IMG/VR virus record: IMGVR_UViG_3300031473_000068
Length of the DNA stretch: 64,000 bases
Source of the DNA: a virus
Direction: 5' to 3' (one strand)
Below are positions 3,991 through 61,095 of the stretch, in pieces. Under the pieces are notes generated by a model. The model did not search any database, had not been told where the DNA came from, and was given only the letters and a program-made list of their open reading frames with translations. The first letter of the stretch is position 1, and the number at the start of each line of letters is the position of its first letter. Made by a program: the position numbers and the translations under genes.

Positions 3991-4064
3991 GGTCCGGTAG
4001 CTCAGCTGAATAGAGCAGCAGCCTTCTAAGCTGCGGGTCATTGGTTTGAATCCAATCCGGATCA
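3991..4064 (+). tRNA. tRNA-Arg(TCT); probable prophage attachment site (attL)
   Basis: Cloverleaf GGTCCGG..., anticodon arm GCAGC-CTTCTAA-GCTGC, T-arm ATTGG-TTTGAAT-CCAAT; integrase gene 135 bp downstream. Confidence 0.95.
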
Positions 4065-4068
4065 CTAT

Positions 4069-4198: not shown

Positions 4199-5317
4199 AT
4201 GCAGTATTCAATCACCCCGGTGCTTCATCCCTATGCTGATAAGAGCGGTCTTCACAAGTTAAATCTGCAGGTAATATATAATAGAAAGAAGGCTTACGCA
4301 CCTGCAAGTATTAAACTTAAGGAAGAATTTTGGGACAATGGTGTTATTGTTAAGCATCCTAACAGAAAAGTATTTTCGGATCTTCTCAACAAACAAAGAA
4401 ATGAAATTGAAAAACGATTAATTGAAGCTATAAGAGAGAACGCTTCTATCTCAAAGCAACGACTGGGTGAAATAGCCAAGGGTCAGAAAGAGGGAAAACA
4501 AATACTAATCACGGATTTTATTTTTGACCAGGTTAAGCTGCTTAAAGGGAGGCTCACAGAGGGACGGCTTAAACATTACAAGGTAATGGCAGGTAAGATT
4601 GAATATTTCAAAGAGGGTGCGACCTTTCGGGAAATATCAATAACCTGGTTAGGCGAATTTGAGGCATGGTTAAGGTCCAAAGGGCTGCATAGCAATACCG
4701 TACTGAGTAATATGAGTTTGCTCGTAGGAATATTTAATAAAGCTGCCGTTGCCGGCTTAATCAAAAAGGAACAGTTTGCAGGATACAAGCGGCCGCGGTA
4801 TACGCAAAAAATAAGCGAGTACCTTACCGAGGAAGAAATAAATAAACTGTTTGACCTGGTGAAAATTATTGAAAAGCCGGGTCATAAGCTTGCAGGTTAT
4901 TATTATATACTCAGTTGCCTGACAGGTTACCGCCTTAGCGACGCTAAGTCTTTTGATTATAAAAAAAACGTGCAGGACGGAAATTTAATTCTCCAGGCAA
5001 AGAAAAACAAAGCCATTGTTTCTACCCCAATATTTTCGCGGCTTGCTGAAGTGCTCGAGTATATAAAAGACAAACCTTTACATCTCAGTGAGGATAAAAT
5101 ACGGCAGTATATAAAAGAACTGTTTTCTTTAGTGGGTATTAACAAAGATATCTCTTATCATTCTTCCAGGCATAGCTACGCAATGCTTCTTATTAAAAAA
5201 GGATTCAGTATTGACGAGGTTGCCCAGGCTATTGGTGATACAGCGATAGTAGCGAAAGTATATGCCAAAATCAGCAACCCGCATTTACATAAAAAATTCA
5301 AAGAACTTTTAGGGTAA
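4199..5317 (+). CDS. int: Tyrosine recombinase/phage integrase
   Basis: GYRLSD (catalytic R), HSSRH (HxxR), VYAK (catalytic Y); Bacteroidota-type arm and SAM-like N-terminal domains. Confidence 0.93.
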   Translation: MQYSITPVLHPYADKSGLHKLNLQVIYNRKKAYAPASIKLKEEFWDNGVIVKHPNRKVFSDLLNKQRNEIEKRLIEAIRENASISKQRLGEIAKGQKEGKQILITDFIFDQVKLLKGRLTEGRLKHYKVMAGKIEYFKEGATFREISITWLGEFEAWLRSKGLHSNTVLSNMSLLVGIFNKAAVAGLIKKEQFAGYKRPRYTQKISEYLTEEEINKLFDLVKIIEKPGHKLAGYYYILSCLTGYRLSDAKSFDYKKNVQDGNLILQAKKNKAIVSTPIFSRLAEVLEYIKDKPLHLSEDKIRQYIKELFSLVGINKDISYHSSRHSYAMLLIKKGFSIDEVAQAIGDTAIVAKVYAKISNPHLHKKFKELLG

Positions 5318-15478: not shown

Positions 15479-15898
15479 ATGCCAGAAATTAAAACAGAAA
15501 AAAAATCACTCAGGTACGATTTCAAAGCGAGAGAGACACATGAAATGTCTATGCAGCTTGCCCAAAAAACTATTGAAGGGGTAGAGATTGAAAATGAATC
15601 TAAAGCTGTGCAATCGCAGTACACCTCGCGACTTAAAGTTGTTAAATCTGAAGTAGGTAAGCTATCCCGGCAAATACAAGACGGTTGGGAACTCAGGGAA
15701 ATAGAGTGTGATATTGAATATCACAAACCTGCTAAAGGTAAAAAGACTATTACCCGCAAGGATAATATGCACGAATGGGTTGAGCCAATGGAAAGCTGGG
15801 AGTGGACGCTTTTCAATCAACCAGAGGATGAAGATGATGCAGTTCAAGAGGCTGAGGTAGTAGTTGAAGATAACGGACCTAAATTATTGGAAAATTAA
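15479..15898 (+). CDS. Conserved phage hypothetical protein
   Basis: 139-aa ORF, coiled coil then acidic tail. Confidence 0.7.
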   Translation: MPEIKTEKKSLRYDFKARETHEMSMQLAQKTIEGVEIENESKAVQSQYTSRLKVVKSEVGKLSRQIQDGWELREIECDIEYHKPAKGKKTITRKDNMHEWVEPMESWEWTLFNQPEDEDDAVQEAEVVVEDNGPKLLEN

Positions 15899-16602
15899 TG
15901 ATAGGCATTTATAAAATAACAAGTCCAATGGGCAGGTTTTACATCGGACAAAGCCGGGATATCGAACGAAGGTTTGCTACTTATAAACGATTAAGCTGCA
16001 AATCTCAACCTAAACTTTACGCCTCGTTGGTTAAGTATGGTGTTAATAATCATTATTTTGAAGTATTGGTTGAATGCGAAGAAAGTGAACTTAATTATTA
16101 CGAAACTTTTTATATCCGCCAAAACCAAAGTTTTAGATCCCAAAACCTGAATTGCAGAATGGACGGGATTTATCAAATGGCGTCCGATGAGACAAGAAAA
16201 AAAATCAGCGAAATTAATAAAGGCAGGGTTGTTTCCGAAGAAACCAGACTAAAATTGAGTTTAAATGCAAAAGGTAAGCCATCGCCGAACAAAGGAAAAA
16301 AGGTGGCACCTGAGATTGTACAAAAGCAAAGGATAAAACTAATTGAAGGAGGAAAAGTTAAAGGGCCTAACAACCCTTTCTACGGTAAGACGCATAGCGA
16401 AGCAAACCTTAGCAAAATGCGCGGTAAATCTAAAGGAGTCGGCGGCTTAAATAATACAGCAAAACTTGTAATTAACACAGAGACGGGAATGTTTTACGAC
16501 TGTATAAAAGATGCTGCTGAGTCAATTCTATTGAAGCCCTACGTTCTTAGTAAAATGCTGAGAGGTGACAGGAAAAACAAAACATCATTTATTTATGCCT
16601 GA
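15898..16602 (+). CDS. GIY-YIG homing endonuclease with NUMOD3 and C-terminal NUMOD1-like motifs
   Basis: GIYKIT...YIGQS; SDETRKKISE/SEETRLKLS repeats; NPFYGKTHS. Confidence 0.88.
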   Translation: MIGIYKITSPMGRFYIGQSRDIERRFATYKRLSCKSQPKLYASLVKYGVNNHYFEVLVECEESELNYYETFYIRQNQSFRSQNLNCRMDGIYQMASDETRKKISEINKGRVVSEETRLKLSLNAKGKPSPNKGKKVAPEIVQKQRIKLIEGGKVKGPNNPFYGKTHSEANLSKMRGKSKGVGGLNNTAKLVINTETGMFYDCIKDAAESILLKPYVLSKMLRGDRKNKTSFIYA

Positions 16603-20245: not shown

Positions 20246-21073
20246 ATGATATATAGAGACCACTTCCAAAATTACAAGAGGCACAATATACCAAAAGCTC
20301 AACTTATCATTGCTGATATACCTTACAACCTTGGAAACCATGCCTATGCTTCAAGCCCTGCTTGGTATAAAGATGGAGATAATAGTAATGGAGAAAGTGC
20401 TTTAGCTGGTAAAAGTTTTTTTGATACTGATGAAGATTTTAGACCTGCCGAATTTATGCACTTTTGCAGCACAATGCTAAAGGCTGAAACTAAAACAAAA
20501 AAAGTTGAAGGTGAAGCAAGGCAAAAGGGAGATGCACCTTGTATGATTATATTTTGTGCTTTTGATCAACAAATGTATTTAATAGAATTAGCAAAAAGAT
20601 ACGGTTTGAATAATTACATAAACTTGGTTTTCCGTAAAAACTTTTCCGCACAAGTCTTAAAAGCAAATATGAAAATAGTTGGTAACTGTGAATATGGATT
20701 GGTTCTTTATCGTGATAGATTGCCAAAGTTTAGAAATAATGGCAAAATGATTTTTAATTGTATTGACTGGCCGAAAGATAATGACATCGAAAAGATACAC
20801 CCCACGCAAAAACCTGTTGAACTTTTAAAAAAGCTTATTGAAATATTTACAGATGAAGGAGACGTTGTAATTGATCCTGTGGCTGGTAGTGGTTCAACTT
20901 TGATAGCTGCTGAAAGAATTAATAGAAAAGGGTTTGGATTTGAAATAAAGAAAGAGTTTTTTACAAAAGCAAATATTTGGTTAGCGGAAGAAAAGCTAAT
21001 AAAAAAAGAAATAAAGGAACTTGGTTTTGCAAAGACTAAACTAAATAAGATTGCCCCTACGCTATGGTCTTAA
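20246..21073 (+). CDS. Amino (N6-adenine/N4-cytosine) DNA methyltransferase, beta class
   Basis: DIPY (motif IV variant), HPTQKP, DPVAGSGST (motif I). Confidence 0.88.
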   Translation: MIYRDHFQNYKRHNIPKAQLIIADIPYNLGNHAYASSPAWYKDGDNSNGESALAGKSFFDTDEDFRPAEFMHFCSTMLKAETKTKKVEGEARQKGDAPCMIIFCAFDQQMYLIELAKRYGLNNYINLVFRKNFSAQVLKANMKIVGNCEYGLVLYRDRLPKFRNNGKMIFNCIDWPKDNDIEKIHPTQKPVELLKKLIEIFTDEGDVVIDPVAGSGSTLIAAERINRKGFGFEIKKEFFTKANIWLAEEKLIKKEIKELGFAKTKLNKIAPTLWS

Positions 21074-21110
21074 ATGAACGTTGGTAACAATTATAGCTAA
21101 TCCGTCAAAC

Positions 21111-21287
21111 ATGAAAACCTGTATAACCTGCCCGCCTAATGAAGCTTTGAAGCCCTTAACCGATTTCTATATTGATCGCAGCTTTTTTGATAACAGGTCC
21201 AATGTCTGTAAACACTGTACTATCAAAAAGAAAAAGAAATTGTACCGGGATAAAAAGGCAGAGCGGGAAAAGTTTGCGATTATATAA
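21111..21287 (+). CDS. Small CxxC...CxxC protein
   Basis: CITC and CKHC; stop codon lies in the first attC-like inverse core. Confidence 0.6.
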   Translation: MKTCITCPPNEALKPLTDFYIDRSFFDNRSNVCKHCTIKKKKKLYRDKKAEREKFAII

Positions 21288-21417
21288 CGCTCGGCCCGCT
21301 TTGCGATGTGGCGGTATTTGAAAAACATCTGCTCCAAATTTATTCATAACTAAAATAGAATTACAAATGTCACAAACAACTACTTCCGCTGACATATTGC
21401 AAAACGGCATGTTAGCA
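21282..21417 (+). repeat. attC-like site 0
   Basis: ATATAAC...CCGCTTTGCGATGT/ACATATTGCAAAACGG...GTTAGCA. Confidence 0.75.
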
Positions 21418-22089
21418 GAAGCCTTAGTCCACCCGATATTATTTTCAAGTCAAATGGTACAGGCAATTTTACGAGGGAATAAAAGTCAGACGAGACGGGA
21501 GATAAAAGGCTGCAACGATTTTTCACACTCTAAATTAGTTATAGACCCTGAACTATGTGGCGAAGATAAAAACGGGGATATATACCCACTATTATCTAAA
21601 GGACTGCACGTTGATTTTGATTTCGGGGAATGGGTTGTAAAATGTCCTTATGGAAATGTTGGCGATATTCTTTGGGTTAGGGAAACATGGGCAGATAACA
21701 CTGCTTACTTTTTGTATAAAGCAAGTTGTGATAGTGACTTTTATGTTGATGAAAATTACCAAGAAACAAAGGAAAAAATTAAATGGAAGCCTTCGATATT
21801 CATGCCGAAAAAAGCCTGTCGGTTGTTTTTGAAAATTGCTGATATAAAGGTTCAACAATTAAATGATATATCAAACTGGGATGCAATGCAAGAGGGGGCT
21901 TTAATGTCCGATATACCAAAAAAAATATTGTCTAATGAAAATATGGCTAAGAAAATATCACAGAATGGTTTCAAGGTAGCTTTTAGATATGTGTGGGAAA
22001 AAATAAACGGCAAAGACAGTTGGGATAACAACCCGTGCGTATGGGCAATAAGTTTTCAAAAATGTGAACGCCCAAAAGGTTTCTGCTAA
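21367..22089 (+). CDS. ASCH-like/morphogenetic phage protein (cassette A gene)
   Basis: PILFSxxMVQAILxGxKSQTRR, CPYGxxGDxLWVRETW, WKPSIFMP, WDxNPxVW motifs. Confidence 0.75.
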   Translation: MSQTTTSADILQNGMLAEALVHPILFSSQMVQAILRGNKSQTRREIKGCNDFSHSKLVIDPELCGEDKNGDIYPLLSKGLHVDFDFGEWVVKCPYGNVGDILWVRETWADNTAYFLYKASCDSDFYVDENYQETKEKIKWKPSIFMPKKACRLFLKIADIKVQQLNDISNWDAMQEGALMSDIPKKILSNENMAKKISQNGFKVAFRYVWEKINGKDSWDNNPCVWAISFQKCERPKGFC

Positions 22090-22277
22090 CGTTTTAGGGC
22101 TTGGCGAAGAATGGGAATTTGAAATTCGTCCGCCCGGAACAAATGATGATTGAAAAACCAAAAGATGAAGATAACAACAAAAAGCTAAATAGATAATGTC
22201 AAAGCCGGATATACAGCCGAATAGAATTAATGATGTTGAGGATATTTACGTCCGCCCATTTTTTGCCAAACCCAATG
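21412..22277 (+). mobile_element. Integron-like gene cassette A (866 bp)
   Basis: Left end GTTAGCAGAAGCC is complementary to its own inverse core GGTTTCTGCTAAC (12/13). Confidence 0.75.
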
Positions 22278-22283
22278 TTAGCA
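22084..22283 (+). repeat. attC-like site 1
   Basis: TGCTAAC...GGGCTTGGCGAAGAATGGG/CCCATTTTTTGCCAAACCC...GTTAGCA. Confidence 0.8.
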
Positions 22284-22780
22284 GCCGTTGTTTGTCAGTA
22301 GTGCCTTTGAAATTGAAAGAAGCAAACGCATTTGTTGTTAAACATCATCGTCATCATGGGAAGGTTGTCGGTTATCAATTTGCTTTAGGAATTAAATATG
22401 AAAATAAAATTATCGGCGTTGCAATTTGCGGTCGTCCAATTGGAAGATTTTTAGATGACGGAAAGAAGATAGAAGTTCTTCGTCTTTGCATTGTTGAAGG
22501 AATTAAAAACGGCTGTTCAAAACTGTATGCAGCTTGCAGTCGTGTTGCAAAAGAAATGGGCTTTTTAAAAATTATTACTTACACATTACAGTCTGAAAGT
22601 GGTGTGAGTTTGAAAGCAAGTGGATGGCAATTAGAAGAAGAAAATGTCGGCGGTAAAGAATGGAACAGCTCTGTTGGCATCAGTCGCACAAGCGAAGTGT
22701 CTGATTTATTTGGAACTGTTCGCAAATACCCGAATGAAAAAAAGAAACGTTGGTCGAAGTCATTTTACAATGGCTGCTAA
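22196..22780 (+). CDS. XF1762-family (GNAT/Mom-like) protein (cassette B gene)
   Basis: EANAFVxxHHRHH, GVAICGRP, EVxRLC, NGCSKLY, ITYTLxSESGxSLKASGW. Confidence 0.75.
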   Translation: MSKPDIQPNRINDVEDIYVRPFFAKPNVSSRCLSVVPLKLKEANAFVVKHHRHHGKVVGYQFALGIKYENKIIGVAICGRPIGRFLDDGKKIEVLRLCIVEGIKNGCSKLYAACSRVAKEMGFLKIITYTLQSESGVSLKASGWQLEEENVGGKEWNSSVGISRTSEVSDLFGTVRKYPNEKKKRWSKSFYNGC

Positions 22781-22903
22781 CGTTTCAGCATTGCAAAAAG
22801 CAGGGAAATAGGAATACGCCTGCCCGATGCGATTTGTACAAAAGTTCATTAGTATTCCCATTGCTCAAAGCACAACGTCAGCCCTGCTTTTTGCAATGCC
22901 CTG
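22278..22903 (+). mobile_element. Integron-like gene cassette B (626 bp)
   Basis: Left end GTTAGCAGCCGTTG is complementary to CAATGGCTGCTAAC (13/14). Confidence 0.8.
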
Positions 22904-22909
22904 TTAGCG
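22775..22909 (+). repeat. attC-like site 2
   Basis: TGCTAAC, perfect 18-bp stem GCATTGCAAAAAGCAGGG/CCCTGCTTTTTGCAATGC, GTTAGCG. Confidence 0.85.
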
Positions 22910-23368
22910 GCTGTTAAATTTTGTCAATTATGTATGATTACGAAAATCAAGAACACTATGATTATGAAATGAATTGTCAAGCCGAAGCGGAAGCCGAAAT
23001 GGAGGCTATGCAAGCAGATGCAGATGCACAAGATGAACAGGACAAAATAGAGGCAGAAAGGGAAGCGGCTGATATGGAAATTGAGAACATAAATAATCGG
23101 ATTTATCAACTCCAAGACGAGTTAGATGATTTGAGATTTAGAAAACATGAAATTTTACGAAGTGTCCCTTAATAGCCGCTAACGTTCGGCGGCTTGCTGC
23201 TGGTTTTGAATTTAAAAATATAAATATGAGAACAAGAGTTGAATGGGTATCTGCTGCCCAAATTGAAGCAGAAAGACGGGTCAAAATGACGGAAGCTGGA
23301 TATGAAGTTGGGTTTGTTCATGGAGTTGATTGGATGTTCCGTCAGCAAAAATTGCAGCAAACCGGTTG
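22904..23368 (+). mobile_element. Integron-like gene cassette C (465 bp)
   Basis: Left end GTTAGCGGCTGTTAA is complementary to TTAATAGCCGCTAAC (14/15). Confidence 0.8.
22930..23172 (+). CDS. Highly acidic helical protein (cassette C gene)
   Basis: 80 aa with 25 D/E versus 7 K/R by manual count. Confidence 0.7.
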   Translation: MYDYENQEHYDYEMNCQAEAEAEMEAMQADADAQDEQDKIEAEREAADMEIENINNRIYQLQDELDDLRFRKHEILRSVP

Positions 23369-23374
23369 TTCTAA
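23177..23374 (+). repeat. attC-like site 3
   Basis: CGCTAAC...CGGCTTGCTGC/GCAGCAAACCG...GTTCTAA. Confidence 0.75.
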
Positions 23375-23528
23375 GCTGCGGGAATTGTTAGTACAAGAGT
23401 TGAATAGAATTATTGAAGTGACTGCACCTTACACTGAAAGCAGGCATGAAATAGTAAGATTAATTGAATACGGAGCATCTTTGGAAAGGGTTATAGTGCT
23501 GATGGATGCTCTTCCGCCCGTTGCTTAG
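23226..23528 (+). CDS. Hypothetical protein (cassette D gene, start inside attC3)
   Basis: 100-aa ORF with TAG stop inside the inverse core GCTTAGAAC. Confidence 0.6.
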   Translation: MRTRVEWVSAAQIEAERRVKMTEAGYEVGFVHGVDWMFRQQKLQQTGCSKLRELLVQELNRIIEVTAPYTESRHEIVRLIEYGASLERVIVLMDALPPVA

Positions 23529-23531
23529 AAC
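23369..23531 (+). mobile_element. Integron-like gene cassette D (its attC truncated after the inverse core)
   Basis: Left end GTTCTAAGCTGCGGG is complementary to CCCGTTGCTTAGAAC (13/15); no downstream stem found. Confidence 0.65.
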
Positions 23532-23748
23532 TAGTTAATATAAGACACTATGAACATTCAACTCATTGAAAAACAAAAGAAAAAATATAGGCTAAATATT
23601 AATGGCAACGATTGCTTTATTTATACCACTTGATTTATTTATAACGGGACTATTTCCTGTAAAAAAGATGTGAGGTTAATGGCTCACTTGGTTGGTATGT
23701 TAACAGAAAGTTCATTAGTTATAATAAAATAAAGAAGGCAATAAGAAA

Positions 23749-24159
23749 ATGAGTAATAATCTTCAGTGGCTTGAAACTATAAAAAATTCCCCTGTAGCAG
23801 CAAGAAATAAGCATTTGATTGCTGAAAAGAAGCCAAAGAAGTCAAAATATCATTCTCAAAAAATAGATGCCGATGGATTAACCTTTGACAGCAAGAAAGA
23901 ATATAAACGCTACAGGGAATTAAAGTTACTTCTTAAGGTGGGCGAGATAGGATTTTTAGCAAGGCAGGTAGAATATACGTTTCAAATAAAGGGCGGTAAG
24001 ATAGCTTCTTATTTTGCTGACCTTGTTTATACTGATGTAAAAACGGGTCAGATAATAGTAGAGGATGTAAAGAGTGAAGTGACACGGACTCTTCCGGTGT
24101 ACAGATTGAAACGTAAGCTTATGTGGCTTCAACATCGCATTAAGATAAGGGAGGTTTAA
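23749..24159 (+). CDS. DUF1064-family putative endonuclease
   Basis: FDSKKEYKRY...RQVEY...YxADxVY...VEDVKS...YRLKRKLM. Confidence 0.8.
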   Translation: MSNNLQWLETIKNSPVAARNKHLIAEKKPKKSKYHSQKIDADGLTFDSKKEYKRYRELKLLLKVGEIGFLARQVEYTFQIKGGKIASYFADLVYTDVKTGQIIVEDVKSEVTRTLPVYRLKRKLMWLQHRIKIREV

Positions 24160-60996: not shown

Positions 60997-61024
60997 CAAT
61001 TTAAGCGCCGGGCTTGCTTCCCAG

Positions 61025-61095
61025 TTGCGGGAACGGGAATTGAACCCGTGACTAAGGCTTATGAGACCTTCGAGATACCGCTTCTCCATCCCGAA
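61025..61095 (-). tRNA. tRNA-Met(CAT)-like gene with acceptor-stem mismatch
   Basis: TTCGGGA TG GAGA AGCGGTA TCTC G AAGGT CTCATAA GCCTT AGTC ACGGG TTCAATT CCCGT TCCCGCA A; U2/C71 mismatch; no encoded CCA. Confidence 0.8.

Follow-up and report, generated by a model that had tools for sequence, protein, structure and literature searches.

In a 64,000-nt stretch of viral DNA (IMG/VR record IMGVR_UViG_3300031473_000068; the whole stretch is hereafter called the window), the early operon of a prophage carries five co-directional gene units and four hairpin sites at positions 21080-23531. This segment is likely to represent an orphan array of an integron-like cassette system of Bacteroidota. The four hairpins are recombination-type sites that bound single-gene units, and they belong to a family that is widespread in Bacteroidota phages and chromosomes. 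The case draws on the anatomy of the array, on the site family and its covariation and, in relatives, on breakpoints at the site cores and on linkage of the sites to a recombinase.

The strongest evidence internal to the window is a boundary signature. Each site, S1 to S4, opens with AAC and closes with GTT. When the 12 nt after each GTT were compared with the reverse-complemented 12-nt flank that precedes the next AAC, 11, 11, 11 and 10 of the 12 positions agreed (the last figure, for S4 and the terminal AAC, was counted by hand). The same GTT-side segments match the AAC flank of their own site at only 3, 6, 7 and 3 of 12 positions (S1 to S4), and all other flank pairings remain at or below 7 of 12. 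R' of S4 (GTTCTAAGC) fits the flank of the terminal AAC, not its own R''. These values confirm the cassette hallmark that a preliminary description of the window, made from the letters alone, had claimed. Complementarity between the flanks of the same gene is also seen in viral contigs L024 and L021 and in Polaribacter phage P12002L, in which the unit ends are complementary over up to 30 nt.

All features of the array lie on the + strand. The array probably starts with an AACGTT core at 21077-21082 (AAC at 21077-21079), which directly follows the stop codon of a methylase gene and has no hairpin after it. Unit U0 (21080-21288) contains a small HNH/endonuclease-VII-like zinc-finger gene, with an open reading frame (ORF) extending to 21287; it has no hairpin, ends in TATAAC and shows gapped inverted flanks (approximately 21092-21113 against 21270-21287), a weak match made by eye that needs three indels. 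Site S1 (21286-21413; AAC 21286-21288, GTT 21411-21413) consists of AAC, 7 nt, an imperfect stem, a loop, the stem, CAT and GTT. It is the weakest of the four, and its loop carries an A-rich leader and an ATG at 21367. Together with a phrog_874 gene of unknown function (21367 or 21409 to 22089), whose TAA stop sits within the following core, the S1 hairpin makes up unit U1 (21289-22090). Site S2 (22088-22279; AAC 22088-22090, GTT 22277-22279) has a loop of about 150 nt with an ATG at 22196; its L box, in which GGCTTGGCGAAG pairs with TTTTGCCAAACC, is near-identical in sites of Flavobacterium phages and Chitinophagaceae chromosomes. Unit U2 (22091-22781) joins this hairpin to a Mom-like DNA-modification gene (22196-22780). 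Site S3 (22779-22905; AAC 22779-22781, GTT 22903-22905) has a perfect 18-bp stem, and a 23-nt stretch of its loop is 91% identical to the loop of chromosomal site L123; in unit U3 (22782-23183) it is combined with a small coiled-coil gene (22931-23172). Site S4 (23181-23370; AAC 23181-23183, GTT 23368-23370), with an ATG at 23226 in its loop, and an ORF of 100 amino acids (23226-23528) form unit U4 (23184-23531). The terminal core GAAC (23528-23531; AAC 23529-23531) ends the array without a hairpin.

The coordinates of S1 to S4 bear out the four AAC...GTT hairpins of the preliminary description, together with their asymmetric spacers (6-7 nt after AAC, 3-4 nt before GTT) and, for S2 and S4, loops of about 150 nt; these two sites are each about 190 nt long. 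The ATG codons in the loops of S1, S2 and S4 (21367, 22196 and 23226) are probable start codons of the downstream genes, and homology of the downstream proteins starts near or past GTT. An NTG before GTT was rejected as a general start codon, being in frame only at S1 and at one site of Flavobacterium phage mumin6-1 and out of frame at S2. A motif, (G/T)NACAAATG, is repeated up to three times in the loops of S1, S3, L013, L123, L129 and L131. Its ATG is a probable start codon in phages and is antisense to the genes in chromosomes; because of the latter orientation, the motif may be a protein-binding element.

Hairpin strength was evaluated over both strands of the 64 kb. In a scan for AAC...GTT hairpins, S3 (24.5), S2 (23.5) and S1 (17.0), which share one geometry, were the top three, the next score being 15.5. 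Ten shuffles peaked at 16.5-20, and only S2 and S3 clear every shuffle; the scanner is ungapped and misses bulged sites as well as S4. Arm duplex energies were -33.2 kcal/mol for S3, -30.0 for S2 and -23.6 for S1, compared with -21 to -24 in shuffles, in a duplex-energy scan with a high background. Folding of whole sites was significant only for S3 (z = -4.4 for the top strand, -3.9 for the bottom strand); the bottom-strand folding proposed as a check in the preliminary description thus succeeds for S3 and fails for S1, S2 and S4. Core heptamers alone are not enriched in the window. Another AAC...GTT palindrome, at 23643-23720, was discarded as weak and finds no support from the covariance model described below.

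This model, R1, was built from an alignment of 12 sites, all from other phages. In the alignment, 92% of cells are paired, compared with 69% after shuffling and 33-44% in slid controls. Compensatory changes occur in 10 of the 11 L-stem pairs, and the covariation score of 0.63 (against 0.20) was reached by none of 500 shuffles. AAC and GTT are invariant in all 12 sites and extend to TAAC/GTTA in 10 of them; the full 7-mers fit RYYYAAC/GTTRRRY only loosely (e.g. GCTAAC and GTTAGC). A C.A mismatch is conserved at one position, and no extrahelical base is evident. In the window, R1 recognizes three + strand sites, S2 with 32, S3 with 29 and S4 with 21 bits, with no further match at E <= 1, and it finds zero matches in six control loci of terminase relatives.

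The same sites recur in other phages, including cultured Polaribacter, Cellulophaga and Flavobacterium phages, and in chromosomes. Viral contigs reached via terminase relatives (L013, L021-L024) carry near-identical sites beside unrelated genes. Phage P12002L has at least 10 sites, all gene-sense, between methylase, Mom-like and small genes. By BLAST, half of S2 matches Flavobacterium phages at 25 of 26 bases, and P12002L_attC1, a published site of P12002L, matches Cellulophaga phage phi17:1. Moreover, R1 detects sites in Chitinophagaceae (31 of 121 genomes) and in Bacteroidota (29 of 151 genomes), and the L boxes of these sites are near-identical to that of S2. A covariance-model search of the kind suggested earlier, here with a model from other phages, recovers S2, S3 and S4 and extends to Bacteroidota phages and chromosomes, but it recovers S1 only weakly. 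Rfam yielded chance-level matches only, and nhmmer profiles of half-sites found none beyond the training sites.

Two arrays of the family show particular features. In P12002L (L030; 29150-29260 and 36940-37320, minus strand), both arrays end in one and the same element of 65 nt, which abuts AAC. Published as P12002L_attC2, it is oriented opposite to the other P12002L sites and was recombined by IntI1 (Qi et al. 2023, PMC9892861). A chromosomal array of six sites (L136; G047:C1:1596600-1616500) carries SUKH/SMI1, DMP19 and DUF3997 cargo and is an orphan array, with no recombinase within 80 kb.

Exchange of units can be followed in nine genomes of Flavobacterium phages, which represent Muminvirus and, closely related to it, Lillamyvirus and Hattifnattvirus. 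The genomes are 97-100% identical where aligned and differ by unit gain, loss, insertion, replacement and reordering; units are gained, lost, replaced and reordered even between Muminvirus isolates with an identity of about 99.9%. Pooling all pairwise comparisons gives 196 homology endpoints, of which 181 (92%) fall in the range from -1 to +30 nt around a TAAC^ junction (the caret marks the point of exchange), compared with 20% of random positions. The narrower range from -1 to +4 nt holds 41% of the 196, compared with 4%, and five of the endpoints outside the wider range sit at the other edge, T^GTTA. Eight junctions checked by hand fall exactly at TAAC^G(TT), and at one indel, a deletion, the shared sequence is just the 7 nt TAACGTT. 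Likewise, L024 and L021/L022 (93-99% identical) diverge precisely at AAC^, in a swap of two N6/N4 methylase units against a single C5 methylase unit. Because the homology breaks sit at TAAC^G, which is the hairpin's 5' edge when the gene-sense strand is read, the hairpin moves with its downstream gene, and the exchanged unit is a hairpin plus a downstream gene ending in TAAC. The crossover at G^TT put forward in the preliminary description is not borne out, the breaks of the Muminvirus group lying at TAAC^G and few at T^GTTA. Viewed on the complementary strand, however, the unit is a canonical ORF plus attC cassette with a G^TT crossover. Comparison of related phages, also suggested earlier, reveals unit gain and loss at the core in the Flavobacterium phages, but not among the compared copies of the prophage itself, which are identical.

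Additional rearrangements were noted in these Flavobacterium phages. In L031 and L039-L042, a 297/168/129-nt gene block and a 102/228/156/171-nt block stand in opposite order in mumin6-1 versus hattifnatt, snusmum and sniff, and some mumin sites are 5' half-sites, formed by recombination inside the hairpin.

Several chromosomal arrays adjoin a family of tyrosine recombinases of 379-404 amino acids, members of which are 44-46% identical. These proteins combine SAM_4 and catalytic domains, with an N-terminal extension in the chromosomal form. They score best with the models 'tyrosine recombinase/integron integrase', IntI and XerC/D, in each case without reaching the cut-off, and they skip IntI model positions of about 178-237, that is, they are without the IntI insertion. 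The family is present in 50 of 121 genomes. Genomes with sites carry it more often (odds ratio 3.6 with p = 0.003 and 5.8 with p = 5e-5), and about 20 genomes have sites no more than 25 kb away from the recombinase, within a single contig. All 13 R1 matches in viral contigs, distributed over 4 loci, are located within about 8 kb upstream of such a recombinase and on the same strand. Six sites in L155 and five in L160 lie just upstream of, and on the same strand as, a 271-amino-acid recombinase that is a relative of the family core (7977-8792 in L155), and a small gene follows each site. Two candidates were rejected: the 403-amino-acid ORF heading array L138 is a succinyl-CoA ligase, and the 403-amino-acid integrase beside L141 is a member of a different family.

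Apart from the prophage integrase, the window encodes no tyrosine recombinase, and none was found in the 10 kb past its right end; a matching recombinase is also absent from the complete genomes of P12002L, mumin6-1 and phi17:1. This agrees with the earlier view of a phage-borne array resembling attC-site clusters that have no integrase (CALINs), given the attC-like folded sites and the absence of a matching recombinase from the prophage. Supply in trans by a Segetibacter host is plausible, because each of the five Segetibacter genomes that were searched encodes a recombinase showing the two-stretch match to the IntI model that is typical of the family; the copy of S. koreensis, at L142 4723-5913, shares 44% identity with those linked to arrays. 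No protein in these five genomes reached the IntI (TIGR02249) cut-off, and the search for intI proposed in the preliminary description was accordingly negative in these genomes. Of its proposal that an IntI-like enzyme acts in trans, the part that stands is an Xer/IntI-like recombinase, present in Segetibacter and linked to sites elsewhere; a classical IntI is unlikely.

Phage sites are always gene-sense, each forming the 5' leader of its gene, and many of their loops contain a conserved A-rich leader and an ATG. Of 28 phage sites, 19 fold better on one particular strand of the site, which in phages is the gene-sense strand. Of 32 chromosomal sites, 24 likewise favour that strand, and there the genes are encoded on the opposite one. 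Strand preference thus tracks the site, not transcription. This asymmetry, together with the pairing of unit ends across whole ORFs, favours a folded-DNA substrate.

Alternatively, the hairpins could be RNA elements of the early operon (a leader or insulator, a site of RNase processing or a presenter of translation starts), the genes being shuffled by ordinary homologous or microhomology recombination. A precedent of this type exists in the promoter-stem-loop (PeSL) cassettes of T4-type phages, intergenic stem-loops in early regions that contain an early promoter and recombine by homology. The constant gene-sense orientation of phage sites agrees with an RNA role, as do the better folding of the sense strand with its G.U-type wobbles, the A-rich leader and probable start codon in the loops of S1, S2, S4 and many relatives, the many breakpoints that run into similar 5' arms and the existence of half-sites with a 5' arm only. 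Nevertheless, we judge this explanation unlikely. In chromosomes the same site strand folds better although the genes occupy the opposite strand; unit ends pair across a whole ORF, which translation would keep melting in RNA; one indel shares 7 nt only; the sites are linked to a tyrosine recombinase in both chromosomes and phages; and no Rfam family matches.

Considerably less probable is the mobilization of the units by housekeeping XerC/XerD, in the manner of the pdif modules of Acinetobacter plasmids (single-gene modules bounded by 28-bp duplex Xer sites), or as small transposons with terminal inverted repeats. Every unit does have inverted ends, the array-linked recombinase scores nearly equally on the XerC, XerD and IntI models, and we take the T-GTTA edge to be loosely XerD-arm-like. 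However, unit ends differ in sequence beyond GTTA/TAAC, which speaks against a sequence-specific transposase, and the conserved part is a folded, covarying stem instead of a 28-bp dif-like duplex. The linked recombinase, moreover, is a distinct family (50 of 121 genomes), not the universal Xer pair. Both pdif modules and PeSL cassettes are single-gene modules with short conserved bounding sites that are exchanged between replicons or phages; to our knowledge, neither has complementarity between the ends of the same gene or a dedicated linked recombinase.

Canonical attC sites have spacers of about 5 and 6 nt, extrahelical bases and a length of about 57-141 nt. That the window holds true attC sites in a true CALIN, recombined by a canonical IntI of the host or of another element, is slightly more improbable still. 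Features shared with classical integrons and CALINs are folded single-strand sites with AAC...GTT outer boxes (here with RYYYAAC/GTTRRRY-like cores), an imperfect inner stem and a variable loop; structure that is kept while sequence varies; complementary cassette ends; arrays of single promoterless genes; a G^TT-compatible crossover on one strand; and the occurrence of orphan arrays without an integrase. Of the features that define classical attC, the outer boxes, the structure-conserved inner repeat and the cassette boundary signature are present, whereas the canonical geometry and an IntI bearing its characteristic additional domain, either in cis or in the five Segetibacter genomes searched, are not. 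The window sites have spacers of 6-7 and 3 nt and outer pairing over 12-30 nt, two of the four are about 190 nt long, and their loops of up to about 150 nt can hold a probable start codon. In the site family, the conserved C.A mismatch takes the place of extrahelical bases. In phage arrays, unlike in classical integrons, the genes run the opposite way, so that the better-folding strand is the sense strand.

The identity of the enzyme separates the two systems further. Phage-borne attC clusters without an integrase were described as phage CALINs by Qi et al. 2023, who treated two sites as IntI attC sites (PMC9892861). In that paper, P12002L_attC1 was predicted as an attC site by HattCI alone and is the sole one of six phage sites without verified recombination by IntI1. 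We consider a classical IntI unlikely as the enzyme, because no protein in the five Segetibacter genomes reaches the IntI cut-off, integrons are almost unknown in Bacteroidetes (PMC9024848), P12002L_attC1 failed with IntI1, and the recombinases neighbouring the arrays are without the IntI insertion. Finally, chance, or ordinary terminator-like palindromes without shared function, is hardly credible: the whole-site folds of S1, S2 and S4, no better than shuffles, and the unenriched core heptamers would fit it, but the hallmark matrix, the independent R1 matches, the covariation and the near-identical L boxes in distant phages and chromosomes contradict it.

In the integron-like cassette system, a full unit consists of a folded-DNA recombination site followed by its gene. 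The site opens at ...TAAC^G and continues with 5-6 nt up to the first arm of the L stem; a variable loop separates this from the second arm, after which 2-3 nt, the last of them T, lead into GTTA.... The gene ends in its own ...TAAC. Both ends of one unit pair with each other, like the attC R''/R' boxes in a circular cassette. We infer the chemistry, the strand that is cut and any activity in this prophage as follows. An Xer/IntI-like tyrosine recombinase, formed by SAM_4 and catalytic domains without the IntI-specific insertion (about 270 amino acids in phages, 380-430 in chromosomes), would cut the folded gene-sense strand at or beside TAAC^G and would thereby excise, insert and reorder units. 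As the prophage encodes none, the enzyme would have to come in trans from the Segetibacter host or from another element that co-infects it. Genes are co-oriented with the site in phages and reversed in chromosomes, as they are in classical integrons.

More tentatively, these elements may add up to a 'mirror integron' common to Bacteroidota phages and chromosomes. It would be served by an Xer/IntI-like recombinase without the IntI domain, with a cut strand that is antisense to chromosomal genes but sense to phage genes. Prophages and virulent phages without the enzyme, the present one among them, would borrow it from the host or from co-infecting phages, and methylase, Mom-like and other anti-restriction genes would be reshuffled in ecological time. 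Because the cut strand is sense in phages, each phage cassette would bring the site along as its 5' leader, and the loop would often contain the start codon.

Several observations weigh against an integron-like system. In the window, S1 is a weak family member (8.7 bits with R1), and its whole-site folding does not exceed that of shuffled sequence (z = -0.01 top, -0.45 bottom); the same holds for S2 (z = -0.92) and S4 (z = -1.18), for both of which the bottom strand was folded. The two other prophage copies compared with the window (L001 and L002) are 100% identical to it, offering no variation in which movement could be seen, and the assembled contigs of two public runs holding the prophage contain no joints and no circles. 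In the relatives, many endpoints reach 20-30 nt into similar 5' arms, and breakpoints at the core could result from microhomology or homologous recombination at the sole conserved intergenic sequence. As to the recombinase, none is found near the chromosomal arrays L136 and L138, and in S. koreensis the R1 match and the recombinase are on separate contigs. The failure of P12002L_attC1 with IntI1 fits a different enzyme without being positive evidence for one. Lastly, the leaders and probable start codons in the loops allow a role at the RNA level, and gene orientation relative to the site is reversed between phages and chromosomes.

Part of this system had been anticipated. P12002L_attC1 is a compact member of the site family of the window, with the same geometry and with methylase/Mom-like cargo. 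The passages of Qi et al. 2023 covered here do not mention the 10 or more additional P12002L sites, a link to Bacteroidota chromosomal arrays and their recombinase, or breakpoint evidence (PMC9892861). In rAID-1 of Bacteroidales, short genes that all point the same way follow a XerD-like tyrosine recombinase, for which at least 44% identity to BF9343_RS08045 of B. fragilis is the criterion, and the intergenic sequences are repetitive and 'reminiscent of integrons' (Ross et al. 2019; bioRxiv 10.1101/471110). Going by this description, the layout is matched by Chitinophagaceae arrays with the site type of the window (L135, L139 and L140), in which the recombinase lies upstream. Immunity-type cargo like that of rAID-1 (SUKH, DMP19) occurs only in the chromosomal array L136, which has no adjacent recombinase. 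The window array shares with rAID-1 at least two co-directional short genes and repetitive intergenic sequences, but not the orphan-immunity-gene cargo; it differs in being prophage-borne, in having no recombinase, in its DNA-modification-type cargo and in a gene orientation opposite relative to the site. The system is one form of the integron kind, which both Qi et al. 2023 (PMC9892861) and rAID-1 (bioRxiv 10.1101/471110) foreshadow in part. The preliminary interpretation is partly supported: it was right in kind, with the crossover, the unit and the enzyme now corrected.

The prophage is integrated at a tRNA-Arg gene (3991-4065). Its integrase (4199-5317, + strand; Arm-DNA-bind_5, SAM_5 and Phage_integrase domains) adjoins this gene, falls outside the array-associated recombinase family and is probably context, not part of the cassette system. 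The host is a Segetibacter (Chitinophagaceae), given that the flanking LptD is 81% identical to S. koreensis LptD. Within the early operon, the array is preceded by an N6/N4 DNA methylase gene (20246-21073) and followed by a DUF1064 resolvase-like gene (23749-24159), and the cargo of its five units comprises the HNH-like, phrog_874, Mom-like, coiled-coil and unknown genes. Searches of viral contigs found no relatives of the phrog_874 protein, the Mom-like protein or the helicase. The closest terminase relatives (L003, L004, L006 and L028) are without sites and have no early genes in common with the window.

Other observations concern the metagenomes and the remainder of the prophage. In both rock-metagenome runs, assembled contigs stop inside the S2 loop (window 22093-22200). 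The S2 5' arm and a piece of the leader recur in many other contigs of these runs, with a higher summed depth, and contigs sharing S2 pieces have differing upstream genes and diverge right at CTAACG^. A free-standing homing-endonuclease gene of the GIY-YIG + NUMOD3 type (15898-16602, + strand) lies directly upstream of the helicase gene and overlaps it. ARAGORN detected a tRNA-Met(CAT) at 61024-61095 (-) inside the lysis region. About 13 more small ORFs follow the lysis genes in L177 (10889-16216, corresponding to approximately 63273-68600 and running past the window end); no R1 match and no recombinase was found in this interval, and host genes for a carbamoyltransferase, PIG-L and a two-component system come next.

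If the cassette reading is true, it would supply a concrete mechanism, at the level of sites, by which early regions in Bacteroidota phages become mosaic, and would account for the fast turnover in these phages of DNA methylase and other DNA-modification genes. Plating efficiency of Baltic Flavobacterium phages tracks their methylase content (PMC7077304). If the 'mirror integron' holds, the Muminvirus isolates suggest that such reshuffling takes place within ecological time. The finding would also extend integron-type gene capture to a phylum thought to be nearly integron-free, unite the poorly understood rAID-type arrays with the published phage 'CALINs', and predict an enzyme-site pair that is directly testable.

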